Counted from the stretch's first letter, positions 1 through 23,170 are shown. The stretch: 24,000 bases of DNA from Methanobacteriota archaeon (GCA_013791785.1 VMTD01000001.1:1-24000); one strand, 5' to 3'. The notes: a model not told the origin generated them from the sequence alone. Numbers and translations: made by a program.

Positions 1-20
1 AATACTTCGTTTTTCATTTT

Positions 21-48
21 TCACTTATCACTATTCACTGTTCACTAA
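21..48. repeat. Four tandem 7-bp units TCACTNN (tcactta, tcactat, tcactgt, tcactaa)
   Basis: Read directly from the sequence. The units are contiguous. A degenerate fifth unit, tcatttt, lies at 14-20. The array is about 90 bp upstream of the marC-family start. Confidence 0.6.
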
Positions 49-137
49 AAACTACAATTTAACGAGCAAACTTCAGAATACTGAACTCTTACATTCCGCA
101 GTTCAATTTATATAGTAATTGATTTTCACGCGATTCA

Positions 138-4608: not shown

Positions 4609-4632
4609 TGTGGAATAAAAGGTTTCCAGGGT

Positions 4633-4640
4633 ATTTATAG
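4633..4640 (-). promoter_or_regulatory. TATA-box-like element for the 954-aa secreted protein gene
   Basis: The minus strand reads tataaata, centred about 28 nt upstream of the ATG at 4608. This fits an archaeal leaderless transcript. Confidence 0.45.
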
Positions 4641-4679
4641 GTATTGCGAAGACAGTTTGAATTGTTGTTCTATGCCTGT

Positions 4680-6368
4680 TTATTTCTTAGCCTGAATCTT
4701 CGAATACGAGTCCTTGAGGCTCACGGTCCTGTTAAACACCGGCTTTCCGGGCGCCGAATCCAAATCAACGCAGAAATAACCCAGCCTCTCCAGCTGAACT
4801 CTGTCGCCTATCTTCAGGTCGGCGGTTGCCGGTTCCACTTTGCAGTCACTCAGAACAGTCAGTGATTCAGGGTTGAGGAACTGGGTGAATTCTTTCTCCT
4901 GGCCCATGGGGTCCTCCACCGTGAACAGTTTGTCGTAATTCCGCACTTCTGCGGAAACCGACTTGGAGGCCGATACCCAATGCATGGTGCTCTTCACCTT
5001 GCGCCCATCCGGGGAATTGCCTCCCCTGGTGGCCGGGTCCACGGTGCATCTGAGTTCCGTGATGTTGCCCTGGGAATCCTTGATCACGGAGTTGCAGGTG
5101 AGGAAATAAGCGTACCGGAGGCGTACCTCGCGGCCGGGAGCCAGCCTGAAGAATTTTTTCTCAGGGACTTCCATGAAATCGTCCCGCTCGATGAACAGTT
5201 CCCTGGTGAACGGAACCTTCCTGGTGCCGGCTTCCGGATTTTCAGGATTGTTGACGGCGTCCAAGAAATCGACATGGTCATCGGGCAGATTATCGATGAC
5301 GACCTTGAGCGGATTGAGAACGCCCATGAAACGGGGCGCGTTCCTGTTCAGGTCCTCCCTGACGCAGTGCTCCAGCACTTCAAGCGCTATGGTGTTGGAC
5401 TTCTTGGCGATTCCCGCCCTGCTGAGGAAGTCCTGGATTGCGGCCGCCGGGTACCCGCGCCGGCGCATTCCGGAGACAGTGGGCATCCTGGGGTCGTCCC
5501 AGCCGGTGACATGGCCCCGGTCCACCAGCAGCTTGAGGTACCGCTTGCTCATGATTGTGTAGGAGAGGTTCATCCTGGCGAATTCAATTTGCCTGGGGCG
5601 ATACGTACCCAGCTCGATGAGGAACCAGTCGTAGAGTGGACGATGATTCTCGAACTCGATGGAGCACATGGAGTGCGTGATTCGTTCGATGGAATCCTCC
5701 AGTCCGTGGGCCCAATCGTACATCGGATAGATGCACCACTTGTCACCGGCATGGGGGTGGCTGGCATGGAGAATTCTGTACATGATGGGGTCGCGCATGT
5801 TCATGTTTGAACTGGCCATGTCAATCTTCGCCCTCAGGGTCCTGGAGCCGTCCGGAAACTCGCCGTTCTTCATTCTCCCGAAAATATCGAGACTTTCTTC
5901 AATGGGGCGGTCCCTCCAGGGGCTCGGTTTGCCCGGCGTATTATAATCACCGCGGTACTCGCTAATCTGATCCGCCGTGAGTTCGCAGACATAGGCTTTG
6001 CCCTTCTTGATCAGGTCAATGGCAAAATCATACATCTGCTGGAAATAATCACTAGCATAGAATACGCGATCCTCAAAGTCCGCGCCGAGCCATGCAACGT
6101 CGCGTATTATGGAGTCTATGTACTCTTTCTCTTCTTTAATAGGATTGGTATCGTCGAAGCGAAGGTTGAACTTTCCGCCGAAATCCCTGGCGATGCAGTA
6201 ATTGAGCCAGATTGCCTTGGCATTGCCGATGTGGATGTAGCCGTTGGGCTCGGGCGGGAACCTGGTATGCACTCCATCATACCTACCTGCCCTGAGGTCT
6301 GCGACTATCTCTGCTCTCAGGAAATCCTGCTTGGCCAGTTCATCGAATTTCGGTTCGTTCCAGTTCAT
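4680..6368 (-). CDS. glnS: Glutaminyl-tRNA synthetase (glutamine--tRNA ligase), bacterial type
   Basis: The 562-aa ORF is collinear with E. coli GlnS along its whole length as I recall that sequence. Shared blocks include [11 protein letters not shown](I/L)[42 protein letters not shown] (KMSKS-type), [24 protein letters not shown] and PVFNRTV. The HIGH signature reads HIGN (nt 6222-6233). Confidence 0.93.
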
Positions 6369-9449: not shown

Positions 9450-9521
9450 AGCCCCGTGGTGTAGTGGTTATCATTAGAGACTCTGGATCTCTGGACTCCA
9501 GTTCGAATCTGGACGGGGCTA
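9450..9521 (+). tRNA. tRNA-Gln (anticodon CUG)
   Basis: Hand-folded cloverleaf.
- Acceptor AGCCCCG/CGGGGCT (7 bp, A1:U72), discriminator A.
- D arm GTGT-AGTGGTTA-TCAT.
- Anticodon arm AGAGA-CTCTGGA-TCTCT, with CTG at positions 34-36.
- 4-nt variable loop.
- T arm TCCAG-TTCGAAT-CTGGA.
- No encoded CCA, and a T-rich tract (ttatttt, 9528-9534) just downstream. Confidence 0.9.
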
Positions 9522-9740
9522 CTCTCATTATTTTGTAAACATGCCCGTCCAGATGAAGAACTGGCCCCACGAGCGGCTGTATCTTCATTAATGAAACCGG
9601 AGGCCGCGAGCAAGACGAATTTGTCACACAAATTCGTCGATGGTCCGAATCTGGACCCCCAGCTCTTACACTGGATTACGATTCGTTCATACTTCGTGTC
9701 TGGGGCCTATGCAAGAATTTACATCTGCAACCAATGCCAC

Positions 9741-9968
9741 CTGAAACTGGGCCTAACCATAAACTTCACCACGGCACCGCCCATCCCCATCATGCCCCGT
9801 CTGAATCGCTTCTCATATTATCTGGAGGGCGGGGTATTCGTCATCGAATTTTCCGAATTCGATGTCGTGTGACACGATTCCCGTCATCATCCTTTTAAAG
9901 CCTCGCCTGTAAGGGCGGGGTTAGCTTAAATCGGCGCACAACTCGGCTCCAGGGCTCCGGCACCGGCC
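9741..9968. repeat. Structured repeat family, copy A (right half only, about 230 bp)
   Basis: Aligns by eye to 16070-16299 (copy C) and 12100-12270 (copy B). It contains:
- a long-loop stem CCCCGTC (9795-9801) / GGCGGGG (9828-9834)
- hairpin CATCGAATT-ttccg-AATTCGATG (9842-9864)
- hairpin CCTCGCC-tgtaag-GGCGGGG (9901-9920)
The left boundary is approximate. Confidence 0.8.
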
Positions 9969-9979
9969 AACCGCCCAAA

Positions 9980-10000
9980 GCACCCCACCGCAAACTCCTT
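9980..10000. repeat. Degenerate copy of the cassette 3' motif (gcaccccaccgcaaactcctt)
   Basis: Related to 12582-12605 (gcaccctctccacaacaaactcct) with a 3-nt indel and two substitutions. It lies about 40 nt 3' of the stop of the minus-strand ORF at 10040. Confidence 0.45.
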
Positions 10001-10039
10001 GGCCGTGTTCCCCCACATCTCCCCACGCCTCGCACCCCC

Positions 10040-10285
10040 TCACGAACCCCGTCCCTCCATTTCCCTGAAAAGCGCTTCCTTATCCACTGTCGGATCAACC
10101 GGCTCATAGGCAAAGCAGCAGAACATCTCGCCTTTCTGGATTTCATCCAACTGGTCCATCCGTGTAAGATTGCATGCAACGATCTCTTTTCCGTTTATGA
10201 TGCATGATTGGCAAAGCAGCGGCACCGGTATTGAATCCTCATCGATTTTTGTTCCGTCGTCCAGGTAATATCCTCCTTCGGTCAT
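10040..10285 (-). CDS. Small cysteine-containing hypothetical protein (81 aa from the ATG at 10285; 90 aa if it starts at 10312)
   Basis: The ORF is immediately downstream of and co-directional with abiEii. The start at 10285 is preceded by AAAGGTGA with 7 nt between GGTGA and the ATG. The protein carries CQSC...C...CC (5 Cys), a possible zinc-binding arrangement. I do not recognise the family. Confidence 0.5.
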   Translation of the reverse strand: MTEGGYYLDDGTKIDEDSIPVPLLCQSCIINGKEIVACNLTRMDQLDEIQKGEMFCCFAYEPVDPTVDKEALFREMEGRGS

Positions 10286-10376
10286 CTTGGTTTCACCTTT
10301 GAACGAGGACATACCATAATCTCTTAAAAACCTTCTTTGTGCTGTATGGATTGCCGCCCTTAGGGGTTCGATTCCT

Positions 10377-11114
10377 CTACAGTTTCTCCTCGATTTCTTT
10401 TCTCACGGTCTCGAAACTCGGTGCCGTTACCATCAATGCCCTTAATTCCTTGTCCCAGACCGTTTTGATTTCCTCAAAGACCTCGTTGAACAGCGATTCG
10501 TTGAGTTTCAAATCATACATGTCCAGTTTCTTCTGTATCAGCGTCTTGTTAAAAATGGTTCCTTTATTCAAAAGGTACCAGATATCATAAGCGTCCCGGG
10601 CCTTCTTTCTGACGAGCATAGCCCTTACCTTTTCGGACATCATCTCCTCGAGAGACATGGATCTTAACCTGAAAGACGGAATATCCGGATATTGCGGAAA
10701 CATCTGTTTCCATTCTGTTTCGAGCAAAACTTCCCCGCAGCTCACATCCATCTGGACCCGGGCAAGGCTCTCCGGCGTTCCCTGATAAAGGAAGCCCTCG
10801 GAAACAAAAGTAACCAAGATGCCTGCCTTTGGCTCGTTTATTTTTACTTTTGAGGGGTAACCGAAGTCGTTTAGGTAATCTACAATTCGGTTTATTTTTC
10901 TGCGACTAATTTCTCCCGAGAAATCAAGATCCTCCGAGAATCTGTTCAGGCCGTGGAGTTTGTACAGCGCGGTGCCGCCCTTGAAAACAAGATTTGGCGT
11001 TTCCCTGGATACCGCCAATAATATGATTTCCTGGAAATAGTCCTTCTCGGCATAGCTCATGTTACTGATACCCTTGGTCCTGGCCACCCTTCTCAGTTCC
11101 TGCATATCTATCAT
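10377..11114 (-). CDS. AbiEii/AbiGii-family nucleotidyltransferase toxin (DUF1814, type IV toxin-antitoxin)
   Basis: Diagnostic N-terminal motif FKGGTALYKLHGLNRFSEDLDF, with a family-typical length of about 245 aa. The ATG at 11114 forms an ATGA overlap with the abiEi stop. The ORF track's earlier start at 11129 is a GTG. Confidence 0.85.
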   Translation of the reverse strand: MIDMQELRRVARTKGISNMSYAEKDYFQEIILLAVSRETPNLVFKGGTALYKLHGLNRFSEDLDFSGEISRRKINRIVDYLNDFGYPSKVKINEPKAGILVTFVSEGFLYQGTPESLARVQMDVSCGEVLLETEWKQMFPQYPDIPSFRLRSMSLEEMMSEKVRAMLVRKKARDAYDIWYLLNKGTIFNKTLIQKKLDMYDLKLNESLFNEVFEEIKTVWDKELRALMVTAPSFETVRKEIEEKL

Positions 11115-11755
11115 TTTGTTACCCTCCACCTGTTGCCTTTCTCCGCAGCGTAGTATCTTGAGTAGTTTCTGTCGCCGGCGATTCTCTCATGCAACAACTC
11201 GAGGAAATGGCCGGACGTTTCTGCCACGTAACCCACTTTCTTGATTGTACTTGTTGGCATTTTCAGCGCGTATTTCTCCAGCCTGGCGATGTCGCATTTC
11301 ATTATCGCGTTCCTGACCTCGTCCACTGGCACTCGTTCCGTTTCAATTGCATCGATTATGGCCTTCTCGAGGTCGGCAATGAAAATCCTGAAACCGTTGT
11401 AATTGATGGGCCTGTAGCCCCAGATACTGACTGACCTGATGAGTTCGACATTTCCGATAACCTCATTCTTTCTGGCCATGACCTCTATTCTGGTCGGGAG
11501 CTGGGTTGTTGTACCGTGGTGCTGGAACGCATACCAGAGCGAGATGTATGATGGGTGATAGATGTGAGAAGCGTAGATGAGAGGGTCCTCATGCACGGTG
11601 TAAAAACCTCTCTTCAACCGTTTTATCACTCCTTTGCTTGCCAGCTTGCTTAAATAAACTTTTGAGTAGTTCATATCGCCAACAGCTGCTGCGATTTGCT
11701 TGGTCGTGAATACTGGCACTCGCTCTGCAAACTCAAGGAGGTCTTTTTCTTTCAT
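11111..11755 (-). CDS. AbiEi-like antitoxin / wHTH transcriptional regulator
   Basis: The N-terminal wHTH (FTTKQIAAAVGDMNYSKVYLSKLASKGVIKRLKRGFYTV) plus C-terminal domain is typical of archaeal AbiEi/COG5340 proteins. The gene is translationally coupled upstream of abiEii. I prefer the ATG at 11755 (MKEKDLLEF...) over the track start at 11830. Confidence 0.78.
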   Translation of the reverse strand: MKEKDLLEFAERVPVFTTKQIAAAVGDMNYSKVYLSKLASKGVIKRLKRGFYTVHEDPLIYASHIYHPSYISLWYAFQHHGTTTQLPTRIEVMARKNEVIGNVELIRSVSIWGYRPINYNGFRIFIADLEKAIIDAIETERVPVDEVRNAIMKCDIARLEKYALKMPTSTIKKVGYVAETSGHFLELLHERIAGDRNYSRYYAAEKGNRWRVTK

Positions 11756-11830
11756 CTTATCACATACACATAAAGTTACCATAATAGATAACCTTTTCGG
11801 TGAAAGATAAGAAAGAGGTGTTAATTCCAA

Positions 11831-12270
11831 AATGTCGGCTAGATGGGGTGCCGTTGTTACCCCGGCCTCACAGCCGGGGCGTCACAGTTGAAGGATGCAA
11901 AATGCTCCATTTGTTTGGAAAAATATCACTTGATGCCAGAATAGTATAAAACCCCGCCCTCACAGGCGGGGCATGCTGGTTGCCAAATGACGTGCTGGTT
12001 TGTATGCCGAGGCATGGGTATGTAGTGGACAATCTCCTCTGAACCCGCCCAACCCCAACCGTCACCCCAACACCTGTCAATTCGGCCTAGTGGCTGGTTC
12101 CAGCTTTCCCCATCATGCCCCGTCTGAATCGCTGCTCATGTTGTCTGGAGGGCGGGGTACCCGCCATCGAATTTTTCGAATTCGATGTCATGTGACACGA
12201 TTCTCGTATCATCCTTTTAACGCCCCGGGTGTGAGCCCGGGGTTAGCTTAAATCGGCGTACAACCCGGCC
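11831..12270. repeat. Structured repeat family, copy B (full length, about 440 bp), MITE-like
   Basis: Aligns to copy C over its whole length at roughly 90 percent identity by eye in the left half. It has an about 45-bp replacement/insertion around 12060-12115. Hairpins:
- 11860-11879: CCCCGGC-ctcaca-GCCGGGG
- 11952-11971: CCCCGCC-ctcaca-GGCGGGG
- 12128-12167: long-loop stem
- 12175-12197
- 12233-12252: CCCCGGG-tgtgag-CCCGGGG. Confidence 0.85.
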
Positions 12271-12430
12271 ACGAAGCTGGTTCCAGCCATCCCGATTCTG
12301 CAGCTGCTTCCAACGTTCTACCCTAATACGCAACGCGAATCTAGAGAGAAAAGCCTCCTGTGCAAGATCCGCGCAACATGTTTCGCCTGTTTCGGGCGGA
12401 ACAGGCGAGTACCTGCCACCCCGGGGCAAG

Positions 12431-12536
12431 CCCCGAGGCTTCACAGTTGAAGGATGCAAAATGCTCCATTTGTTTGGAAAATATCACTTGATGCCAGAAT
12501 AGTATAAAACCCCGCCCTCACAGGCGGGGCATGCTG
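12431..12536. repeat. Structured repeat family, copy D (left-part fragment, about 106 bp)
   Basis: Nearly identical to 11874-11977 of copy B. It includes the agtataaaa box and the hairpin CCCCGCC-ctcaca-GGCGGGG (12510-12529). It ends abruptly after catgctg. Confidence 0.85.
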
Positions 12537-12579
12537 CAATTTCTAGTTGGATATTATGGTATTATTCTATTGCGAAAAA

Positions 12580-12600
12580 CCGCACCCTCTCCACAACAAA
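12580..12600. repeat. 21-nt exact repeat CCGCACCCTCTCCACAACAAA (site 1), 3' of the beta-helix protein gene
   Basis: Identical 21-mer at 14405-14425. Similarity continues weakly for about 12 more nt. A hairpin follows (aaact-CCTA-gtc-TAGG-...agttt, about 12597-12625). The site lies about 50 nt beyond the stop codon at 12651. Confidence 0.85.
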
Positions 12601-12650
12601 CTCCTAGTCTAGGGGCGCAGTTTGACAATCATTCATCTGGTTTTTTGGAA

Positions 12651-14318
12651 TCACTTTGCCTTCAATTTTTTGCTTTGATACATGAGTATCCCCATCACGA
12701 TAATGCTTTCAACTATTACTATGATCCCGCAAATCAGCATTGGAAAATCTTCGAACTCGCTTGTGTCCAGAAAATTATTTTGAAAAGTGTTGTTAGAAAT
12801 CGTGGGCGTACTAACAGTATCATAATCAATGCCCGAGTCAGAGTTGTCAATGAAAGTGTTATTGCGAATTGTTGCTTCCGAGGAAGTCAGTGAAACTCCG
12901 ACACTGTTATTCGAAAATGTATTCTCTTCTATCATGACGCCGGTTGAATCCCAAACAAGAATTCCCGTCTCGGTGCCCTGGATGGTGTTTCCCCGAATCA
13001 CCGAGGGCGAGTTCACAAGAACAATACCTTCCCACTCCGTATTTGAAATGGTGCAATTGGCAATCAATGCCCGGCAGTCCGAAATCATCAATGACCGCGA
13101 AGCACTACCCGTAATCGTGGTATTGGTGATGATTGCGTTTCCCCCGAAAACCTCGATGCCACCGCTTTCCGTCGGCCAGTATACATATCCCCAGAGATTC
13201 GTTATTGATGTATTATTCAACTCCAGTATACCAAAGCTTCGGAATTTAAACGTGCCATTGGACCTGAGAATAGAACCATGTATGCGTAATTCACCTGACT
13301 CCGTAACCCATATCTGTGCATTATCTTCCATGACCAATGTGACATTTTCCAGGAAGAGGGCGTTATCAACCAGGATATCCCCAGTTGGGTGAAGAGTGGT
13401 ATCCGAGTAATTTCTCATTGGAAGAACCGAGAATGATGGAGGTGCTCCTGGATCTGGATTTAATGTAGGCTCTCCTTCGTTCGAAAAAAGAATGAAAGCT
13501 ATGGGCGATGATATCATGCAAAAAATCAAAATGGCAGAGAATCCCGGGATAAATAATCTGTCCGACCTGAATTTCTCAGAGTGTTTTGCTAGCTTGAGGG
13601 GAAGCTGAGCAACCATCAATAAAAAAATCGGAAAAATTGCACCCACGATTGCGAGGGAAAAGCCCATGATGGCCAGATTGGTCCCGGGTGGCGCCTCTTG
13701 CGTACCCATAATGAATGAGAGTGCAAACCAGAAGATGTATGTAAGAGTGTAGAGTGCAATCTCGAGCAAAAGCAACCGTCTTCTGCTGTCGGTTGTCGGA
13801 ACTGGCCAAATGATGTTGCTCACAGGAGGGTTGGCTATACGGGATGCAATAATATCAATCTTTTCAGAAAGCCCATCAATGTTGGTGGAAATCGGCAATT
13901 TTGGATGAATTCCAAGAACCTTTTTTTTGAGCACGAATCCATAAAATTTTGGTCTGTACCATTGCGGGGGATCTATTCTCTCGAAATCGGAATAGGGCAT
14001 CAAGATGTTTTTTTGAAAGGGTTGGTTGATTTCAATGCCGTTCTCATAGAATCTGAACGGTTTGACGGAACGTATCAGAAAAAAGGCGAAAACAAACATC
14101 ATAACAATGCTTGTAATATATGTCCCCAGTAAGATAATATCCATATCGCCAGATTCCGTCGTAATCGTGCTATAAATATCAATGATGAACATAATTGAAA
14201 ATAAAGTTAAAAAACCACCTATCATCTTGAATGTATCCCATTTTCTCTTTTTTACCGATTCGGCAGACTCCTCCAAAATGAGCGCACCTTTATTCTCGAC
14301 CCCACATACCTCAAACAT
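12651..14318 (-). CDS. Polytopic membrane protein with an extracytoplasmic right-handed parallel beta-helix (PbH1/NosD-like) domain and a C-terminal TM anchor
   Basis: 555-aa ORF with about 5 N-terminal TM helices. The region from about residue 330 to 520 shows the periodic beta-helix pattern (NTSITN, GNAIITNTTITG, ALIANCTISN, VIRGNTIQG, VMIEENTFSNN, ATIRNNTFIDN, PTISNNTFQNN). The final TM is ICGIIVIVESIIVMGILMY. A TATA-like box (minus strand attaatatat) is centred about 25 nt upstream of the ATG. The region is visibly AT-richer than the core genes. Confidence 0.8.
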   Translation of the reverse strand: MFEVCGVENKGALILEESAESVKKRKWDTFKMIGGFLTLFSIMFIIDIYSTITTESGDMDIILLGTYITSIVMMFVFAFFLIRSVKPFRFYENGIEINQPFQKNILMPYSDFERIDPPQWYRPKFYGFVLKKKVLGIHPKLPISTNIDGLSEKIDIIASRIANPPVSNIIWPVPTTDSRRRLLLLEIALYTLTYIFWFALSFIMGTQEAPPGTNLAIMGFSLAIVGAIFPIFLLMVAQLPLKLAKHSEKFRSDRLFIPGFSAILIFCMISSPIAFILFSNEGEPTLNPDPGAPPSFSVLPMRNYSDTTLHPTGDILVDNALFLENVTLVMEDNAQIWVTESGELRIHGSILRSNGTFKFRSFGILELNNTSITNLWGYVYWPTESGGIEVFGGNAIITNTTITGSASRSLMISDCRALIANCTISNTEWEGIVLVNSPSVIRGNTIQGTETGILVWDSTGVMIEENTFSNNSVGVSLTSSEATIRNNTFIDNSDSGIDYDTVSTPTISNNTFQNNFLDTSEFEDFPMLICGIIVIVESIIVMGILMYQSKKLKAK

Positions 14319-14328
14319 AAAGGCATAT

Positions 14329-14354
14329 CCACAAAGAGATATATTAATTTGTGG
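14329..14354. promoter_or_regulatory. 7-bp inverted repeat CCACAAA...TTTGTGG enclosing the TATA-like box of the beta-helix protein gene (candidate operator)
   Basis: ccacaaa (14329-14335) and tttgtgg (14348-14354) flank gagatatattaa. The ATG at 14318 is about 25 nt from the TATA centre. Confidence 0.4.
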
Positions 14355-14404
14355 AAAGCCCTCGTCTTATTGTTGGGCCAGTCAAGTATTCACGCCGAGA
14401 AGTG

Positions 14405-14425
14405 CCGCACCCTCTCCACAACAAA
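14405..14425. repeat. 21-nt exact repeat CCGCACCCTCTCCACAACAAA (site 2), 3' of the ATPase gene
   Basis: Identical to 12580-12600. It is followed by a bulged hairpin atttCCGG-tccagcgag-CCGGcaaat (about 14423-14452). It lies about 80 nt beyond the stop at 14506. Confidence 0.85.
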
Positions 14426-14505
14426 TTTCCGGTCCAGCGAGGCCGGCAAATGCCCGTGCCCCGGATTCTGTCCATGGTCTGCGGTTCGCTCCGCGTGACT
14501 CGCTG

Positions 14506-15720
14506 TCAGATTGACCGCTTCCGCTCATCCAGAAGAAACTTCCACATGGGCCGCAATTCCATGCCGTTCACGGTTTCCTCCCGGGTCCGGGTCAGGATGA
14601 GCCTAGTCTTGTATTTCCGAAGGGCCTCCATGCTCTTCATATCCTGAACGTCGACCGTATCCTTGTACTTCACTTCCCAGGCAGTTTTATCGTGAACGAA
14701 ATCCACTTCCAGACCCGAGGAACGGTGGTATCGGATTGTTCCCCTGTCCTTCAATGTCAGATAGACTAGATTTTCCGCGCGGGCGCCGGTGTTGACATGC
14801 TCCGTTAGAACGTTCAAAAGTCCGTTGTCAGCGATGTATATCTTTCTTGGGGACGCCTTGCGCTCGGATGCTTTTCCATCCTTCTCCACCAGATATATCA
14901 GGCCGGCCTCCACAAGTAATTCCACTATCCGACTAACTGTCTCGACCGGTATGCCCAATACTCGGGAAATCTTCCTTATGCTGATGGGGGAGCCGACACT
15001 CTGAGCGGCCAAAGAAAGAATATTCCTCAGATTGCTGCTGGAACGGATATCATGCCTGGCAGCTATGTCCCTGTAAAGGATGCTGTCCACAAGGGCCTGG
15101 AGGACGTTGACATCGCCGGTTCTCACATATTCAGGCATTCCTCCGGTCTCCATGTATTCTTCCGCCAGTCCGGGATACAGATGCTGATTGGCTGGCGAGA
15201 CGGTTTTTCCGGTGAAGGCCAGATATTCATTGAAATCCAGGGGAGAAACATGTACCAATCTTTGCCTGCCAGTCAAATACGGACTTTTCATGATTATGTC
15301 CAGACTGGCCGAACCGGATGCGAATATCTTGACATTCCCCATGTCGTAAAGATTCTTGAGCTGTATCTCGAATCGGTCTTTGAAATGAACCTCATCCAGA
15401 AAAAGATATGCGAAATCGCCATGTTCGAGTTTCGATAAACGCCTGAATTCTTCGACAATGTCCAGTATCGTGTGTTTCTCGAGAGACATGTGGTCCAGCG
15501 AAACATAGAATATTTTTTTGGGATCGACTCCGCCCAGGAGTGTGTGAATTATCTGGTGGATTAGCGTGGTCTTCCCCACTCGCCTCAGCCCGGTTATCAA
15601 AATCACATCTTTCGAGTCCTTTAGTTCCAGTAACCTGGATACATAATTTTTCCGGGGTATTCCCGGGAAATCGAAATCTCCATCCCACCATGGATTGAAT
15701 CTGTGCAAAATGGATTCCAT
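14506..15720 (-). CDS. AAA+ ATPase of the AAA_14/DUF4143 family (COG1373-type) with a C-terminal PD-(D/E)xK-like module
   Basis: The N-terminus (RFNPWW...) is typical of this family. Walker A is GLRRVGKTT and Walker B is YLFLDEVH. The C-terminal ENLVYLTL...GLEVDFVHDKTAWEVKY fits the DUF4143 E...D...ExK pattern. A TATA-like box (minus strand ttttatata) at 15743-15751 is about 27 nt from the ATG. Confidence 0.88.
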   Translation of the reverse strand: MESILHRFNPWWDGDFDFPGIPRKNYVSRLLELKDSKDVILITGLRRVGKTTLIHQIIHTLLGGVDPKKIFYVSLDHMSLEKHTILDIVEEFRRLSKLEHGDFAYLFLDEVHFKDRFEIQLKNLYDMGNVKIFASGSASLDIIMKSPYLTGRQRLVHVSPLDFNEYLAFTGKTVSPANQHLYPGLAEEYMETGGMPEYVRTGDVNVLQALVDSILYRDIAARHDIRSSSNLRNILSLAAQSVGSPISIRKISRVLGIPVETVSRIVELLVEAGLIYLVEKDGKASERKASPRKIYIADNGLLNVLTEHVNTGARAENLVYLTLKDRGTIRYHRSSGLEVDFVHDKTAWEVKYKDTVDVQDMKSMEALRKYKTRLILTRTREETVNGMELRPMWKFLLDERKRSI

Positions 15721-15866
15721 GATGCAATATAGGCGGCAATAGTATATAAAAGTGTCCTACCACACCATCTCACTTTTCATCAAAAGTGTACTATCGTACC
15801 ATGACACTTATGAAAATCCCCGTTCAACGCCATCCATGCCTGGAAGTCCCGCGCGGCCGTCATCAG

Positions 15867-16299
15867 AATGTCAGTTTGATGGGGTGCCGTTGTTACCCCG
15901 GCCTCACAGCCGAGGCTTCACAGTTGAAGATTGCAAAATGCACCATTTGTTTGGAAGAATATCACTTGATGCCAGAATAGTATAAAACCCCACCCTCACA
16001 GGTGGGGCATGCTGGTTGCAAAATGACGTGCGGGCATGTGTGCCGAGGCAGGGGTATGTTGTGGACAAACTCCTCTGAACCCGCCCAACCCCAATCTTCA
16101 CCACGGCACCGCCCATCCTCATCATGCCCCGTCTAAATCGCTGCTCATGAAACCTGGAGGGCGGGGTACTCGCCATTGAATTCGAAAAATTCGATGTCGT
16201 GTGACACGATTCCCGTATCATCCTTTGGGAGCCTCGCCTGTGAGGGCGGGGGGGTGTTTAAATCGGCGCTCAAACTGGCCCCAGGGCTCCGGCACCGGC
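15867..16299. repeat. Structured repeat family, copy C (full length, about 433 bp), MITE-like, with imperfect terminal inverted repeats
   Basis: The left arm starting CAGTTTGA (15872) and the right arm ending TCAAACTG (16277) align as inverted repeats over about 50 bp, roughly 70 percent identity by eye. Hairpins:
- 15896-15915
- 15988-16007: CCCCACC-ctcaca-GGTGGGG
- 16127-16166
- 16174-16196
- 16232-16251: CCTCGCC-tgtgag-GGCGGGG
The copy ends about 11 nt from the lysS stop codon. Confidence 0.85.
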
Positions 16300-16310
16300 T
16301 AGCCCGTTGG

Positions 16311-17921
16311 CTATAAATCGACTTTGACCCCATGTTTTTCAGGGTGTGGTTCTGAGAAGTGTTTGATTCTATCTGTCACAAATTTTTGATCCAGCGACGC
16401 CAGGAAATATCCGAGCCTCGGCCCTTTTGTATGGTTCAGGAATATTCGATACATCAGTTTGAACATATCACCTGCTTTGATTCCATGGCTTACGGCATTC
16501 TCATGGATAGCATTATGAATCTTGTCGGGGGTCCAATCAATTATTTTCATTTGGTCTAGAAGATCATCCAGTGCATACTTTTGCAGTTCAGAAATTTCTG
16601 TTGCAGGGGGTTCTATCTGAAGCTGAAATACCATATCCTCGGGTGCGTGGGTTGCGAGCCATACTTTTACCGCGTTCACTTTTATCTTCAAACGGCGTTC
16701 ATGCTCCGGTGTCATCTGGCTGAGATTGTCCGTGCGGGAGAGGGTCTCCAAAATGTGGTCCCAGTCCCTGCTGACCTGCACCGTGGAAATGAGATGCGAA
16801 TAGGATACCTGGCTGAATGTTTCCGGCACACCTGAAATCTGTGAAATCTCGTAGTTTCTTCCCACATCCTCGATTTCCTTTTCAGGAAGCCCGGTCTCCA
16901 GGCCGAAATATGCGCGCTCCGCGGTCTCATATTCCTCTGCCAGCTTCATAATTCCCAGGCCGAAATCAACGTCCTTGTGGCTTGTCGGATTGGAACGGAT
17001 AAAGAAGTAACGGGCGATTTCCGGTGTGGCGATATCAACAAATTCGCCGATAGTGAGTACCCGGCCAACGGATTTACCGAGCCTCTTGCCGCCTTCTGTG
17101 ACTATCCACTCATAAGGCACCGCCAGCGGTGCGGGCGAGTTGAAAATTTGCTCGCATATCGCTTTTCCTGTTTCGTAGGTTCCGCCCGCGGCCATTAGGT
17201 CCTTTCCCATGGGCTCGAACGTTACACCGAGATGGCTCCATCTGGCGGCCCATTCCACCCTCCAGGGCAATTTTCCTTGCCGAATTCCTGCTTGACCCTC
17301 GTGACCGCAGCCGGGGATGAAATTCTTTCCTGCGGTTCCGCCCTTGCAACGGTAGCTTACCTTCTGACCGTCCCAGGCATATGCTTGGGTCGTTAGTATG
17401 CAACCGCAGTTCTCGCAGATTGCAAAGAACGGCAGCCAGTTATCATCTCTCTCGCTTCCAGAAACCTCCTTGATGATTGCGGTTATTTCGGCGGCCTTGT
17501 CCAGAGCGATTTTCACGACCTCATCATACTTGCCGTCGCGATACATTTGGGCGACCGAGACCGGTTCCGGTCTAACATCTATTCTTTCAAGATTTTCAAG
17601 AAATGGCCTTGTGAAATGGTCAGCGAATGAATCGCAGCAACCGTCCGGGCAGGGCAGAACGTACGCTGGCTGTCCCAGATACTGCTCAAACTCCTTCGGT
17701 AACTGTGGCGGTATCTTCCTCAGCCCGTCCAGGTCGTCCATGGCCCAGATGGTCTTGCATTCACCGCCGCCTGCAATTATGGCCTTGGCTATGCCGTCGG
17801 AAATAATCAGATCCTCGGCGCTGCCAAGGTGCGGCTCTCCCGAGATGGAGGTGCCGCTCTCGACAAAGTGTTTCTTGCCCCTGCCAAGCAGCTGCTCGGC
17901 ATAAACGTCTACCCAGTGCAT
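16311..17921 (-). CDS. lysS: Lysyl-tRNA synthetase, class I (archaeal LysK type)
   Basis: 536-aa ORF. The N-terminus HWVDVYAEQLL...SGTSISGEPHLGS sits where the class I HIGH-like region is expected. Length and overall architecture match class I LysRS rather than the class II enzyme. Confidence 0.85.
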   Translation of the reverse strand: MHWVDVYAEQLLGRGKKHFVESGTSISGEPHLGSAEDLIISDGIAKAIIAGGGECKTIWAMDDLDGLRKIPPQLPKEFEQYLGQPAYVLPCPDGCCDSFADHFTRPFLENLERIDVRPEPVSVAQMYRDGKYDEVVKIALDKAAEITAIIKEVSGSERDDNWLPFFAICENCGCILTTQAYAWDGQKVSYRCKGGTAGKNFIPGCGHEGQAGIRQGKLPWRVEWAARWSHLGVTFEPMGKDLMAAGGTYETGKAICEQIFNSPAPLAVPYEWIVTEGGKRLGKSVGRVLTIGEFVDIATPEIARYFFIRSNPTSHKDVDFGLGIMKLAEEYETAERAYFGLETGLPEKEIEDVGRNYEISQISGVPETFSQVSYSHLISTVQVSRDWDHILETLSRTDNLSQMTPEHERRLKIKVNAVKVWLATHAPEDMVFQLQIEPPATEISELQKYALDDLLDQMKIIDWTPDKIHNAIHENAVSHGIKAGDMFKLMYRIFLNHTKGPRLGYFLASLDQKFVTDRIKHFSEPHPEKHGVKVDL

Positions 17922-20820: not shown

Positions 20821-20952
20821 ATGAAAGAGGAACACAAGGAAAGGATGAAAAATTGCCGTTTATCGCAGGACTCTGGCAGTAAACTACCAGCCCCCAAAGT
20901 GGCTGGCGTTTGTTGCCAGGGCTGGAAGTTTACCCAGGGGCCATGCACCTGA
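20821..20952 (+). CDS. Candidate 43-aa Cys-rich micro-protein (MKEEHKERMKNCRLSQDSGSKLPAPKVAGVCCQGWKFTQGPCT), speculative
   Basis: My own translation; the ORF is below the 60-aa cutoff of the supplied track. Its ATG overlaps the TGA of an 18-aa ORF (20768-20824, MTNFALREEYRKVKKSKR) in an ATGA junction. It lies downstream of a TATA-like box and upstream of three hairpins and a T6 tract. No homology is recognised. It could equally be a non-coding RNA. Confidence 0.25.
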   Translation: MKEEHKERMKNCRLSQDSGSKLPAPKVAGVCCQGWKFTQGPCT

Positions 20953-21038
20953 TTTATCAAAGCCTGACAGCTTTGATTTCATGTGCAAATATCTGCACAC
21001 GATGCATGGCGGGTCATGCATATGAGCATGGCGGTCTG

Positions 21039-21044
21039 TTTTTT
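21039..21044 (+). terminator. T6 tract following three hairpins (20956-20977, 20983-20998, 21002-21021), a candidate archaeal terminator for the small plus-strand unit
   Basis: The hairpins are ATCAAAGC-ctgaca-GCTTTGAT, GTGCA-aatatc-TGCAC and ATGCATG-gcgggt-CATGCAT, followed by ctgttttttgtt. Oligo-T tracts are the known archaeal termination signal. Confidence 0.4.
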
Positions 21045-21079
21045 GTTCAGATTCGTGTAAATGGCCTCTCATCCCTGGC

Positions 21080-23170
21080 TTAAAAACCGGGGGGTTCCCG
21101 GCCTTTATCACTAAACGCACTGTCCAATTCGTGTAGCACTGCTTCTGCCAGTGCTGCATTTTTCCCGTTGCCTTTTCCCCTGTAAGCACGAATCTTTCCG
21201 GCCCAGGCCCACACATAATCCGGGTCCAGGCCTATGGCTGTGTCGAAGCACATTATGGCCTCGTGGAACTGCCCGGCCCCCAGGTGTGCCATCCCTTTTC
21301 CGTACCATGTAGGCAATGATTCCGGGTCAGATTCCAGAGATTTTGAATAACTCTCGATTGCATCGGAATATCTGTGAAATTTCAATTGTACTTCGCCGCG
21401 TGAACGGAATATACCGGCATCGGGATTCGGCATGGCAAGGCATGCCAGGGCTTTCGCTTCCTTACCCATGTCACCCAGAATTTCGGCCCGGAACATGTTC
21501 ACCAGATTTGGTGCACCCATCATTTCGGATTTCTCCAGCTCGATCAGCGCCTTTGACTGTTCGGACCGGCCCATGAAGGCCCTGGCCCTCAGGTAGTGTA
21601 TCTCCCACCCCACCATGTCCTCGGCGGCCAGGATGTCCAGCCACTTGACAAGTTCATCGAACATGCCCATCTTGAGCAATAATCTGGCTTTGGTCATCTT
21701 CTGTTCTTTGGTATGTTCCTTCCCGATGACATTGATGCAGCACACACCCAGTTCATTGTAACGTTTCAGGGTGTCCATCAGCTCGGTGCCCAGATGAAGA
21801 GAATCCTTGTGCGTCGGGTTCCTGACCAGTATCTCGTTCAACGTGGCCAGGGCGCGATCGTAACAGTAGGCGGATTCCTCGTAACGGCCCAGCACCTCGA
21901 ACATCTCACCCCTGAAATGCCACGCTTCATCGAATGCAGGATTGAGCAGCAGCGCGTTGTTGGTTGCGTCCAGCGCCTCTTCGTAGCGACCCAGCCACCC
22001 CAGCACCTTGCCCTTGGCCAGCCATGAATGGTCATAGTTCGGGTTGAGGTCCAGGGATTGCTCAATGTACTCCAGGCCGTTCTCCATGTCGCCGAGCTTG
22101 GCCATGCCGTAGCCCTTGGCATACAGCGCATAATCGAAATCGGGCTTCAGTTCAAGAGATTTGTCGTGGTATTTCTGGGCTTCCGCATACTTGCCCATCT
22201 TGTCGTATGCATTGCCGATATTGTTCCATGCTATTTCGTAGCTCGGGCAGACCTCGATGGCCGTCTCGAAGTATGGTATGGATGTATCCCACTTGTCCAG
22301 GTTGTAATGCGCATTCCCGATATTGTTGAGAAGCACCTCGTCAACAGTGTCCAGCTTCAGCGCTGCCTCGTAACTCTCGATGGCGTCCTCCAGCATGCCC
22401 ATGTTGTGGAAAGTGTACCCTCTGTTGTACAGCGCCTGCTTGTTTATTGGCTGTATGGCAATGGCATTGTCATAGCACCTTATGGCCTCGGCCTGCATCC
22501 CCAGCATGAACATGGCAAGACCCTTGTTGTTCCAGGCCTCGGTGTTTTCCGGGTTCGCTGCAATGGCACCCTCGAAATGCTCTATTGCTTCCTCAAACTC
22601 CTCCATTGAATACAGAATGTTGCCCATGGAATTGAGGGCCAGTTCGTTCTCCGGTTCCATGTCAAGAATTGCTTGGAGCATGTCCAGGGCGCGTTCGGAA
22701 AGGCCCTTGGAACTCAGCAGGGCGGCGTATTGCAGGCGCACGGCTGTTTCGTCGTTATCGGTCTCCAGCAATTTGTCATACGAGCGAAATGCGTCCTTCC
22801 AGCGGCCCATCTGCGCCAGAATGAGAGCGCGTTCAAAATGTACGTCCAGATTTTCGGGCTGCGATTCGAGAATCCGGTCCAGCGTTGCCAGGGCGTCCCC
22901 GGGCCTGTTCAGGAACATATAGGTGTTGGCCATGTTGTAGTACGGTGTTTCGTAATAAGGGTCCAGCTTGATTGCGTGCCTGTACATCTCCAGCGCCCTT
23001 GTGTGCTCGCCCATGGCATCAAGGCATACACCGAAATCGTTGCGGATGATCGGATCATCCGGGTTATCGCGAACAGCAATCTCAAAGTATCTGGCCGCAT
23101 CCTCGTATCTCTGACAGTTCGCCAGGTAATTGGCCTTCAGGTGGGTCTCATCTTCCTTTCCGGAGTTCAT
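21080..23170 (-). CDS. Tetratricopeptide-repeat (TPR) protein, about 697 aa
   Basis: The 34-aa TPR periodicity runs along the entire ORF (repeated W..G.A...G.Y.EA...Y..AL...P patterns). The ATG is at 23170; the track start at 23179 is a TTG. It begins 31 nt after the stop of the upstream deacetylase gene. Confidence 0.9.
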   Translation of the reverse strand: MNSGKEDETHLKANYLANCQRYEDAARYFEIAVRDNPDDPIIRNDFGVCLDAMGEHTRALEMYRHAIKLDPYYETPYYNMANTYMFLNRPGDALATLDRILESQPENLDVHFERALILAQMGRWKDAFRSYDKLLETDNDETAVRLQYAALLSSKGLSERALDMLQAILDMEPENELALNSMGNILYSMEEFEEAIEHFEGAIAANPENTEAWNNKGLAMFMLGMQAEAIRCYDNAIAIQPINKQALYNRGYTFHNMGMLEDAIESYEAALKLDTVDEVLLNNIGNAHYNLDKWDTSIPYFETAIEVCPSYEIAWNNIGNAYDKMGKYAEAQKYHDKSLELKPDFDYALYAKGYGMAKLGDMENGLEYIEQSLDLNPNYDHSWLAKGKVLGWLGRYEEALDATNNALLLNPAFDEAWHFRGEMFEVLGRYEESAYCYDRALATLNEILVRNPTHKDSLHLGTELMDTLKRYNELGVCCINVIGKEHTKEQKMTKARLLLKMGMFDELVKWLDILAAEDMVGWEIHYLRARAFMGRSEQSKALIELEKSEMMGAPNLVNMFRAEILGDMGKEAKALACLAMPNPDAGIFRSRGEVQLKFHRYSDAIESYSKSLESDPESLPTWYGKGMAHLGAGQFHEAIMCFDTAIGLDPDYVWAWAGKIRAYRGKGNGKNAALAEAVLHELDSAFSDKGREPPGF

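Follow-up and report, generated by a model that had tools for sequence, protein, structure and literature searches.

A modular, hairpin-rich repeat family at gene boundaries of an uncultured Thermoplasmatota archaeon

Between a tRNA-Gln gene and lysS, the window (the whole stretch of 24,000 nucleotides that was analysed) carries four copies of a sequence rich in GC hairpins, which raises the questions of what the repeated unit is, on which strand its hairpins are kept and how its copies reached their sites. An earlier note described a single element of about 430 bp, with two full and two partial copies. The copies belong to a dispersed, non-coding, modular, hairpin-rich repeat family whose host is an uncultured Thermoplasmatota archaeon. 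The reading that we hold with moderate confidence, from sequence comparison, is that this family is a non-autonomous mobile repeat comparable to BIME, BOX or Correia elements, whose hairpins would act as boundary elements in transcripts.

Two paralogous modules and their arrangements

Copies A, B, D and C do share the same orientation (nhmmer E from 1e-46 to 1e-67), and their similarity extends slightly beyond the ends first assigned (A 9725-10002; B 11825-12300; D 12355-12540; C 15822-16308). The basic unit, a module some 150-250 bp long, comes in two paralogous versions, L and R. In each module, a conserved CATG lies at the 5' foot of the first of two same-strand GC hairpins, a spacer of some 70 nt separates the hairpins and a tail follows the second; L corresponds to module M1 in reverse and R to module M2 forward. 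L and R are considered paralogues because self-comparison of the copies reveals common internal motifs, including a version of the hairpin with an expanded loop, and because the L profile matches R copies over their full length (E ~1e-4).

The modules are found single, head-to-head as L-R through a linker x (copies B and C), or tail-to-tail as R-L through a linker y (L005, L006c) or y' (D-B, L006b), each of these linkers being conserved. What had been taken as the 430-bp element is the head-to-head L-R dimer; its description as one element in two full and two partial copies does not hold. The roughly 50-bp terminal inverted repeats described earlier have to be reinterpreted too: they are not transposon termini, the wider inversion reflecting L as an inverted paralogue of R, and the inversion between dimer ends is limited to a 20-24-nt hairpin and a short ACAAC..GGC stretch. 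The outermost 8-nt inverted repeat (CAGTTTGA / TCAAACTG) is present in copy C and absent from the other copies.

The copies of the window are composed as follows.

9725-9975, + strand: copy A, consisting of a single R module (M2 in forward direction), with helices Ha (9793-9836), Hb (9842-9864) and Hd (9901-9920)
11825-12014, - strand: L module of copy B (M1, with - as its structural strand); its two hairpins span 11860-11879 and 11952-11971
11941-11948: TATA-like TTTTATAC, between the two hairpins of the copy B L module
12015-12095, no strand assigned: head-to-head linker x of copy B, common to copy C and partly to L005 and L007
12096-12300, + strand: R module of copy B, hairpin Hd at 12223-12242
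12355-12540, - strand: copy D, formed by an L module whose tail is the variant y'; a GNRA-loop hairpin spans 12510-12529 and a CUUG-loop hairpin 12419-12438
15822-16349, no strand assigned: copy C, a 528-bp insertion comprising a y-part, L, linker x, R and a 39-nt stretch

The third hairpin of copy B, formerly placed at 12233-12252, is the Hd listed above, and an imperfect direct repeat of 41 nt (12078-12118, 12261-12301) lies on either side of the R core of this copy. The tail y' of copy D holds one further covarying hairpin, and an arrangement homologous to that of D is found at L006 (11153-11434). Copy C has hairpins at 15896-15915 and 15988-16007 in L and at 16232-16251 in R, its R module lying between the lysS stop and L. 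Its L-side end (15822) is the same point as the end of the L007 copy; more generally, module ends differ from copy to copy.

Altogether, 9 L and about 8 R copies were counted across the window, L005/L017, L006 and L007, which belong to one organism. The family occurs on at least four contigs of this organism, beside unrelated genes, as well as in a related species; within variable and defence islands its copies occupy gene boundaries, and short-read contigs end at repeat copies. Most copies beyond the window were retrieved with an exact 20-mer, so that the apparent invariance of the L spacer is partly due to ascertainment: this spacer shows two changes in L017b, and the spacer block lacks conservation in a relative. 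The non-coding status proposed earlier is supported. No counterpart of the family was found in plasmid, phage, viral and GTDB reference-genome collections. In the same way, Rfam at E up to 10 scores only the tRNA-Gln in the window and gives just a chance 15-bit sR53 hit on the copies, in agreement with the earlier note, whose author recognised no Rfam family in them.

Hairpin pairing kept on one strand

The GC hairpins are recovered by the motif CCYCNNN-TGTRAG-NNNGGGG, present 8 times in the window (0.06 expected) and always within copies, on the + strand in the right half and, twice, on the - strand in the left half. Stem positions 5-7 exist as GCC/GGC, GGC/GCC, GGG/CCC and ACC/GGT, and a relative contributes the stem CCGTGCC/GGCACGG. 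In 18 pooled hairpins, 99.2% of the cells are paired and 13 cells are changed on both sides, which none of 500 shuffles matched. The last R hairpin is 100% paired across 7 R copies, with both sides changed in four of its eight pairs. In L005, the second R copy carries GGCCAGATT/AATCTGGCC in place of the R middle hairpin CATCGAATT/AATTCGATG, and the relative L012 has different hairpins at this position. Stem pairing is kept by compensatory mutation, as had been noticed from a few stems. The proposal of selection on structure, as DNA or RNA, also gains from these data, since the covariation of hairpins and R helices exceeds shuffled and slid controls.

To this proposal can be added that only one strand retains the pairing, the + strand in R and the - strand in L, as shown by G·U pairs, GNRA or CUUG loops and strand-biased fold stability. 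Stem position 3 is U·G in 9 of the 18 hairpins and C·A in none; the loops are U[GUGA]G, U[GUAA]G, C[GUGA]G or G[CUUG]C; and the forward-strand fold is more stable than the reverse one in 10/10 comparisons, by 3-16 kcal/mol.

Two general properties of such sequences also deserve mention. Template switching in quasi-palindromes can yield compensatory changes without selection, which speaks against a reading by structural selection, and single-stranded DNA hairpins too can gain stability from G·T pairs and GNRA-type loops, which speaks against a reading at the RNA level.

An insertion hot spot between tRNA-Gln and lysS

The copies of the window lie within a 6.8-kb insertion hot spot that extends from tRNA-Gln to lysS and comprises the following features.

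9450-9522, + strand: tRNA-Gln(CTG), far border of the hot spot
9976-10002, - strand: f3, decayed lysS-3'-end-like fragment, contiguous with the tail of copy A (by eye and alignment)
10040-11830, - strand: cargo block 3, a 90-aa ORF, AbiEii and AbiEi
12571-12618, - strand: f2, displaced lysS 3' end, translation APLD*EFVVERVRFFA (E = 0.002)
12651-14318, - strand: cargo block 2, membrane protein with a beta-helix (NosD-like) domain
14396-14470, - strand: f1, displaced lysS 3' end, translation PASLDRKFVVERVRHFSA* (tblastn E = 7.7e-7, 64-68% identity to the LysRS of relatives)
14506-15720, - strand: cargo block 1, AAA_14/DUF4143 ATPase with its own TATA box (TTTTATATACTATT)
15806-15821, - strand: f0, what is left of an older lysS stop region (GGGGATTTTCATAA); its homologue is the lysS end before the ATPase promoter in L024 and L021
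16311-17921, - strand: lysS (class I lysyl-tRNA synthetase), the target gene

The island is split by decayed lysS 3'-end copies into three gene-carrying blocks, each followed by one such copy, and f1, f2, f3 and f0 form direct repeats of the lysS 3' end at the inserted blocks. Fragment f2 shares 87% nucleotide identity over 31 nt with the lysS of L012; f3, less well supported than f1 or f2, is colinear with the stretch made up of the lysS end and the R tail in this same relative. The genes flanking the copies are not duplicated with them; short decayed lysS 3'-end fragments do adjoin some copies.

Comparisons at orthologous sites reveal presence or absence of the insertions. In the relative L010, tRNA-Gln lies 113 nt from the lysS stop and the whole island is absent (empty site). 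In L021 and L024, the ATPase promoter region is found about 90 nt past a lysS end, copy C being missing at the lysS-ATPase junction. Copy C is itself an insertion into the last lysS codons. The lysS product, 524 aa long in relatives, reaches 536 aa here through a reading frame that continues into the inserted element, whose 39-nt end (16311-16349) now provides 12 extra lysS codons. Near-identical strains showed no presence/absence polymorphism. The R2-DpnI-R-L block is retained, with compensated stems, in a species whose DpnI shares 82% identity. The search for target-site duplications proposed earlier gave no clean case at the copies examined: no direct repeats flank B, D, L006a, L007 and L017b, and copy C has only an imperfect 11-14-nt repeat of lysS terminal codons.

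Such an island recalls the tandem accretion of integrative elements at gene 3' ends, for example the CIMEs at fda in streptococci or the tycheposon arrays at tRNA genes. It resembles them by its hot spot beside a tRNA gene and a gene 3' end, its serial blocks split by decayed target ends, the lack of an integrase in the blocks and its defence-rich cargo; it differs by the absence of any integrase identified in the examined loci, by the geneless copy C and by the occurrence of the same modules away from the target gene. It is conceivable, though unlikely, that the modules serve small cassettes devoid of an integrase as cis-acting recombination sites or att arms, and that a site-specific recombinase encoded elsewhere would stack these cassettes at the lysS 3' end and a few other sites, as in tandem accretion or on an integron-like platform, the hairpins being protein-recognition structures. 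Besides the empty site of L010 and the displaced lysS ends that bound the blocks, this would fit the last gene of each block stopping 24-38 nt short of the next fragment, and the R tail abutting a lysS end in copy A and L012 (39 nt off in copy C) or a lysS-like fragment in L017 and L020. A short GTGCTTTGG is found repeatedly at junctions, a palindromic CCGG-CA-CCGG motif flanks the R core and covaries in copy B, and the L024 ATPase cassette has a 147-nt lysS mimic even though its upstream gene is not lysS. However, no recombinase was found in the examined loci and none of the cargo blocks of the island encodes a recombinase or integrase; block 2 carries no module at all, and lone L copies lie between housekeeping genes (e.g., enolase/FKBP in L006) with no target-gene fragment nearby. 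Furthermore, strand asymmetry and GNRA loops are unexpected in double-stranded att arms, and the lysS fragment repeats could account for the island without the modules.

Integron attC sites have 57-141 bp, R/L core sites (R''-L''/L'-R'), extrahelical bases and an adjoining intI/attI platform. Like the archaeal elements, they are structured imperfect palindromes located between gene cassettes, with structure conserved above sequence and recognition of one strand. The archaeal elements are 3-8 times longer, however, and their halves occur apart; no intI/attI platform, core sites (judged by eye only) or extrahelical bases were seen, and a Pfam search of the examined loci found no integrase.

A possible role at transcript boundaries, and known repeat families

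According to the mobile-repeat reading that we prefer, the copies would have inserted or recombined at the boundaries of genes within variable and defence islands, the mobilising enzyme acting in trans. Once placed, they would be co-transcribed with their neighbours, and their GNRA-capped hairpins would serve at the RNA level as transcript-boundary elements. The first L hairpin, followed by UUUU, would be a terminator or 3' stabiliser; the TATA-like box and then the second hairpin would come next, the latter in the 5' leader of the following gene, and R would sit by gene 3' ends. In 8 of 9 copies, the structural strand of L and the neighbouring gene run in the same direction; in L005/L017, L is oriented opposite to its neighbours. 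The first L hairpin and TTTTATAC are located 20-240 nt past the stop of the co-directional gene in four copies (D, L006a, L007, L017b), and TTTTATAC-TATT matches promoters of the region, that of the ATPase gene among them. This reading is opposed by the orientation of L in L005/L017, the inconsistent direction of R relative to genes, the U-run confined to the first L hairpin, the lack of a clean target-site duplication, the variable module ends and the low copy number (~17 modules seen).

The proteobacterial REP/BIME/REPIN sequences are likewise intergenic GC-rich palindromes with compensated stems, alternate head-to-head and tail-to-tail with conserved linkers, and are sited downstream of genes, where they have been proposed to terminate or stabilise transcripts (PMC2817692, PMC3733652, PMC3116915). 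REPs, however, have 20-40 bp, a GTAG or CGTC tag and hundreds of copies, whereas the archaeal modules have 150-250 bp with two 20-nt hairpins each, a CATG flank and tens of copies at most. Pneumococcal BOX/RUP/SPRITE and Neisseria Correia (NEMIS) elements are also modular, structured, non-coding intergenic repeats that cluster and insert side by side; they carry promoter- or terminator-like signals and form stable RNA hairpins (PMC10969869), roles which are only inferred for the archaeal family. They are bacterial and share no sequence similarity with it, and Correia elements differ by their defined 26-bp terminal inverted repeats and TA duplication. Archaeal MITEs (Sulfolobus SM1-SM4, Haloquadratum PATEs) are similarly non-autonomous, non-coding, multicopy and intergenic (PMC10969869). 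However, their ends match those of identifiable IS elements and they produce target duplications, or, for PATEs, they have IS1341-type ends, neither of which was found in the present family, whose module boundaries are mosaic.

No transposase, integrase or casposase was detected in any examined locus, nor any IS-matching termini or tnpA/tnpB. The autonomous, transposase-bearing parent that the earlier note suggested looking for was found neither in these loci nor by plasmid, phage and viral searches. This speaks against the mobile-repeat reading and bears on another explanation, a purely selfish element of REP/REPIN or IS200/IS605-PATE type whose hairpins would be read as ssDNA by a Y1 (HUH) transposase encoded elsewhere, the RNA-like features being incidental. 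The conserved loop, variable compensated stems and one-strand constraint, the CATG at the 5' foot of the first hairpin, the two same-orientation hairpins per module and the dimers with conserved linkers, which fit the REP dimer pattern (PMC3733652), are all compatible with it, and archaea do have IS200-type TnpA (PMC6006769). We nevertheless regard it as quite unlikely: no Y1 transposase (RAYT) was seen at the examined loci, which cover about 120 kb from this organism and relatives, reports of REP-associated Y1 transposases come only from bacteria (PMC6006769) and the host is archaeal, copies are few, and modules are 5-10 times the length of REPs. Moreover, the 10-bp Ha stem needs three G·U pairs, weak in DNA, and no conserved target tetranucleotide precedes the copies.

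A further explanation, which appears improbable, takes R, alone or together with linker x, to be an independent gene for a structured small RNA of about 200-300 nt, transcribed from the TATA-like box in L and with paralogous RNA genes as its other copies. R forms a four-helix fold whose z-scores fall as low as -3.7, on the forward strand only; it has conserved G·U pairs, a BRE/TATA-like CAGAATAGTATAAAA is found some 25 nt ahead of linker x, and a second species retains R beside lysS and DpnI. Many R modules (A, both R copies of L005/L017, L012), however, lack an upstream L and many L modules a downstream R; R has no clear terminator and, at E up to 10, no Rfam match, and z-scores are modest in two of five copies (-1.4, -0.9).

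Finally, an ordinary local segmental duplication of intergenic DNA, devoid of mobility and function, might explain several copies within 7 kb and the decayed lysS-end duplicates nearby, but has almost no chance of being correct, being already contradicted by the copies beside unrelated genes on at least four contigs, and opposed by the compensated stems, the orthologous copies retained in another species and the insertion of copy C relative to L021 and L024.

Copies, modules and linkers

The four same-orientation copies described in the earlier note are recovered by repeat finding, MAFFT and nhmmer alike, and their similarity extends slightly past the ends first given to them.

Extents of similarity in the window
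A, 9725-10002
B, 11825-12300
D, 12355-12540
C, 15822-16308

Eight matches to the hairpin CCYCNNN-TGTRAG-NNNGGGG, all of them within these copies, are present in the window, versus 0.06 expected. The third hairpin of B lies at 12223-12242 and not, as had been reported, at 12233-12252, and the outermost 8-nt inverted repeat belongs to copy C only. Scanning metagenomes for a 20-mer of the left half led to four further copies on three long JGI contigs (L005-L007), whose repeats are 85-93% identical to those of the window. As a 255-kb JGI contig is on record as encoding a LysRS identical to that of the window, L005-L007 appear to come from the same or a near-identical organism. The window itself derives from an uncultured "Candidatus Thermoplasmatota archaeon", as shown by its class I LysRS, its archaeal-type genes and source names. 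Lengthening L005 to 20 kb (L017) gained one more copy of the left half, and related species (L010, L012, L020, L021 and L024; LysRS identity 69-82%) were reached through protein look-ups. The sequences compared are MAG-derived, and the sample of copies is small and partly ascertained by an exact word, the 20-mer. No strain-level presence or absence was seen among loci L001-L004 and L017-L019, which are identical to the window or to one another across the copies. Nothing matching the family turned up in exact-pattern scans of GTDB species representatives and of IMG/VR, or among PLSDB plasmids and INPHARED phages searched with blastn. In the same way, Rfam has no match on the copies at gathering or even permissive thresholds, in agreement with the earlier note, which did not recognise the element as a known Rfam family.

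It should be emphasized that this is not a single element of about 430 bp, as initially thought: it divides into a left (L) and a right (R) module, which are separable and found at several loci.

Arrangements of the modules
R alone: copy A
L alone: copy D, L006a, L007, L017b
L-R through conserved linker x: copies B and C
R-L through conserved linker y: L005/L017, L006c
L then the tail of R through a different conserved linker, y': D-B, L006b

L and R are inverted paralogues built on one plan, in which CA(G/T)CATG is followed by a first GC hairpin, about 70 nt of spacer, another GC hairpin and a tail (T/A)AC AAC..GGC. The reverse-complemented L profile matches R copies over their full length (nhmmer, E = 1.6e-4 and 9e-4), and Ha, the first hairpin of R, is the same first hairpin with an expanded loop. 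The inverted similarity behind the "imperfect terminal inverted repeats" is thus present, but it represents the outer portions of two head-to-head modules, since L and R are separable inverted paralogues. Bacterial BIMEs and REP dimers likewise alternate in orientation with fixed head-head and tail-tail linkers (PMC2817692, PMC3733652).

The 60-nt L spacer seems absolutely invariant, which is partly an artefact of fishing with an exact 20-mer. Because it is not conserved in a related species (L020), its uniformity within the genome reflects recent spread or gene conversion, together with this ascertainment, rather than deep constraint. A 17-codon ORF starting in this spacer was rejected as coding (substitutions at codon positions 1 and 2, stop not conserved), as was a CRISPR or tandem array (irregular spacing, units too long). 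An AT-rich short motif, (A/T)TTATGGTAAT, recurs at module edges (window 11770-11790, minus strand, and 12540-12560) and in linker y (L005 1275-1295, L006 3225-3245). Upstream of the AbiEi start, too, it is found at a distance of about 25 nt, as a TATA box would be for a leaderless mRNA.

Stem pairing and strand

The compensatory stem changes noticed previously are confirmed. When 18 distinct hairpins from two species are pooled, 99.2% of the stem cells are paired and three of seven stem pairs carry both-sided changes (13 cells), while none of 500 shuffles and no slid register comes near the observed pairing; it should be kept in mind that template switching can yield compensatory change in quasi-palindromes without selection. 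The last R hairpin is 100% paired in seven R copies, two of them from the related species, with four of its eight pairs doubly changed (for example CCTCGCC/GGCGGGG versus CCGTGCC/GGCACGG). The AU-rich middle hairpin CATCGAATT/AATTCGATG becomes GGCCAGATT/AATCTGGCC in a second copy and is swapped for unrelated hairpins in the relative L012.

The structural constraint is specific to one strand, the forward strand, which is plus for R and minus for L. Stem position 3 is U·G in half of the hairpins (9/18) and the mirror C·A in none, and Ha retains three G·U pairs, which U-to-C changes turn into C-G. Viewed on this strand, the loops are GNRA or CUUG tetraloops: U[GUGA]G, U[GUAA]G, C[GUGA]G or G[CUUG]C. 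RNA folds of the forward strand are the stabler ones in 10/10 comparisons, with -49.4 versus -33.2 and -50.4 versus -35.7 kcal/mol for R and a gain of 3-9 kcal/mol for L. Such a one-strand constraint speaks for RNA or for one particular DNA strand rather than for a double-stranded cruciform, and the G·U-dependent stem of Ha would favour RNA.

Gene neighbourhoods and the lysS/tRNA-Gln island

The copies are always intergenic and lie within variable or defence islands.

Island genes near the copies
Window: AbiEi/AbiEii, AAA_14 ATPase
L006: ORF6N, CARDB, AAA_14
L007: CapR/DUF4379
L017: methylases, MNT-HEPN, SLFN ATPase, DpnI, DISARM system

The family marks the borders of defence genes gained by horizontal transfer (AbiE, DpnI/DISARM, MNT-HEPN, AAA_14 ATPases). 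Therefore, it may help to locate variable islands in archaeal MAGs, and it may also explain assembly breaks at the borders of such islands. The block R2-DpnI-R-L is kept whole in the related species of L020 with its hairpins compensated, and Ha, the tail and the segment CATGCTG...GACGTGC are conserved there about as well as coding sequence. L017 1-20759 (JGI Ga0180732_1000014) is a dense defence island with L and R modules at several gene borders. It holds AbiEi_2, PIN, two N6/N4 methylases, MNT-HEPN, an SLFN/AlbA_2 ATPase, DpnI and a DISARM-like operon (DEAD helicase, PLD; DrmE in the relative).

The forward strand of L is co-directional with the neighbouring gene in eight of nine copies. In four copies a co-directional gene stops 20-240 nt before the first L hairpin and TTTTATAC (in copy C, an R module stands between the lysS stop and L), and in six a gene starts within the next 45-160 nt. 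TTTTATAC-TATT resembles local TATA boxes such as TTTTATATACTATT of the ATPase gene, and a terminator scan detects the first L hairpin only; a sigma-70 promoter scan is not applicable to an archaeon. R adjoins gene 3' ends in either orientation.

From the lysS stop to tRNA-Gln there are 113 nt in the relative L010 versus 6.8 kb in the window, where this DNA has received serial additions and carries decayed copies of the lysS 3' end.

Decayed lysS 3'-end fragments, all in the lysS direction
f1, 14470-14396: PASLDRKFVVERVRHFSA*, E = 7.7e-7
f2, 12618-12571: E = 0.002
f3, 10002-9976: adjoins R of copy A directly and is colinear with the "lysS end + R tail" of L012

All three are closer to the lysS end of relatives than to that of the window. 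The window lysS has gained 12 codons at its C-terminal end (16311-16349), PHPEKHGVKVDL*, since its ORF runs into the inserted element; relatives end in ...HFS(T/E)*. In L021 and L024, an ATPase promoter region homologous to window 15720-15821 follows a lysS end by about 90 nt. This junction shows that window 15822-16349 has been inserted between ...CACTTCTCAGAA and GGGGATTTTCATAA, flanks in which the final lysS codons are imperfectly repeated; the insert of 528 bp comprises part of y, L, x, R and 39 nt. Its L-side end (...GCGTTGAAC) coincides exactly with the end of the L007 copy. The relative L012 has a different cargo (a PQQ-like gene), R adjoining the lysS stop and two tRNA-Gln copies. Given the empty site of L010, the stacked fragments, the insertion of copy C and the different cargo of L012, the site is a recurrent insertion hot spot, one insert being purely an L-R dimer. 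Fragments of target genes were not found at the other module loci (PurF, PRTase, enolase and others).

Between an amino-acid permease gene and the ATPase, L024 962-1108 reproduces the lysS 3' end over 147 nt, with 59% amino-acid identity. The ATPase is 89% identical to that of the window, and this cassette seems to move together with a mimic of the lysS end. The tRNA-Gln gene may be a second attachment site of the hot spot. Of its copies in L012 (13696-13768 and 13921-13993), one has a divergent 3' end, and window 9643-9666, 120 nt downstream of tRNA-Gln, is a weak look-alike of the T-arm and 3' end. A tRNA-derived att site was rejected, the match being a weak T-arm-like 12-mer (9645-9656; 0.15 expected by chance).

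Possible origins and relation to known systems

We give about half of our confidence to an inferred reading in which the modules are non-autonomous elements mobilised in trans and their hairpins serve as boundary signals within transcripts. L would then be ordered as a terminator or stabiliser hairpin with its U-run, a TATA-like box and a leader hairpin, and R would be a hairpin cluster for 3' ends. Pfam reveals no integrase, transposase or recombinase in the sizeable ORFs of the window, L005-L007, L012, L017, L020, L021 and L024.

The stacked lysS ends could also be attributed to an integrase-less cassette-stacking system at lysS, with the modules as its cis sites, which we consider unlikely; the modules also stand at loci lacking target-gene fragments. 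The closest analogue of the island is the tandem accretion of integrative elements at the 3' end of a gene. That a Y1 transposase acts on the modules as single-stranded DNA hairpins, in the manner of REP or IS200 elements, would suit a constraint on one DNA strand and seems quite improbable, the family differing from REP/RAYT in size, tag, copy number and transposase. Reports of REP-associated transposases come from bacteria only (PMC6006769). Just as doubtful is a previously undescribed archaeal gene-capture platform whose folded cis-acting recognition sites would be the modules. A trans-acting recombinase would stack defence and accessory cassettes at the lysS 3' end, each insertion supplying a replacement gene end, with the 528-bp L-R dimer, devoid of genes, as the smallest unit that moves. 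A free-standing sRNA gene would agree with the one-strand folds and is very doubtful, many R copies having no L upstream; plain duplication, with compensated stems at several loci, is scarcely credible.

The modules form a structured intergenic repeat mosaic in an archaeon. IS-type termini and target-site duplications were looked for in the copies and not found, which sets the family apart from MITEs, and it also fails the defining tests of integron attC sites. REP/BIME, BOX/SPRITE and Correia elements are the closest in architecture and in putative function (PMC10969869, PMC3733652). Such mosaics, exemplified by REP/BIME, BOX and Correia, are a theme of bacteria, which a modular, covarying and strand-specific counterpart in Thermoplasmatota would extend to archaea. 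With its stacked decayed gene ends and gene-less insert, the lysS/tRNA-Gln hot spot is a tractable case of integrase-less DNA accumulating at an essential archaeal gene.

Other repeats occur in these loci. A second, unrelated intergenic family, about 240 bp long and carrying hairpins of a different kind (e.g., TCAAAGC-TGTCAG-GCTTTGA), is found at window 20871-21115, L006 1924-2063 and 5998-6199, and L001 6542-6854, where it is tandemly duplicated. The match of the window to the NCBI contig JAHIEI010000056.1 ends within it, at 21028, which could reflect a rearrangement, an insertion or an assembly join. A third, short repeat (window 1-92 and L006 10986-11077, 98% identical) seems to be a point where assemblies break, since the NCBI contig terminates 46 nt left of the window start. 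The internal DNA repeats of L007 are due to its CapR/DUF4379 gene (4190-5185), built of about five tandem repeats of about 195 nt with about 77% identity. Finally, three direct repeats with 102-nt spacing at window 22189-22429, in the gene of a 699-aa TPR protein, correspond to ordinary TPR periodicity.
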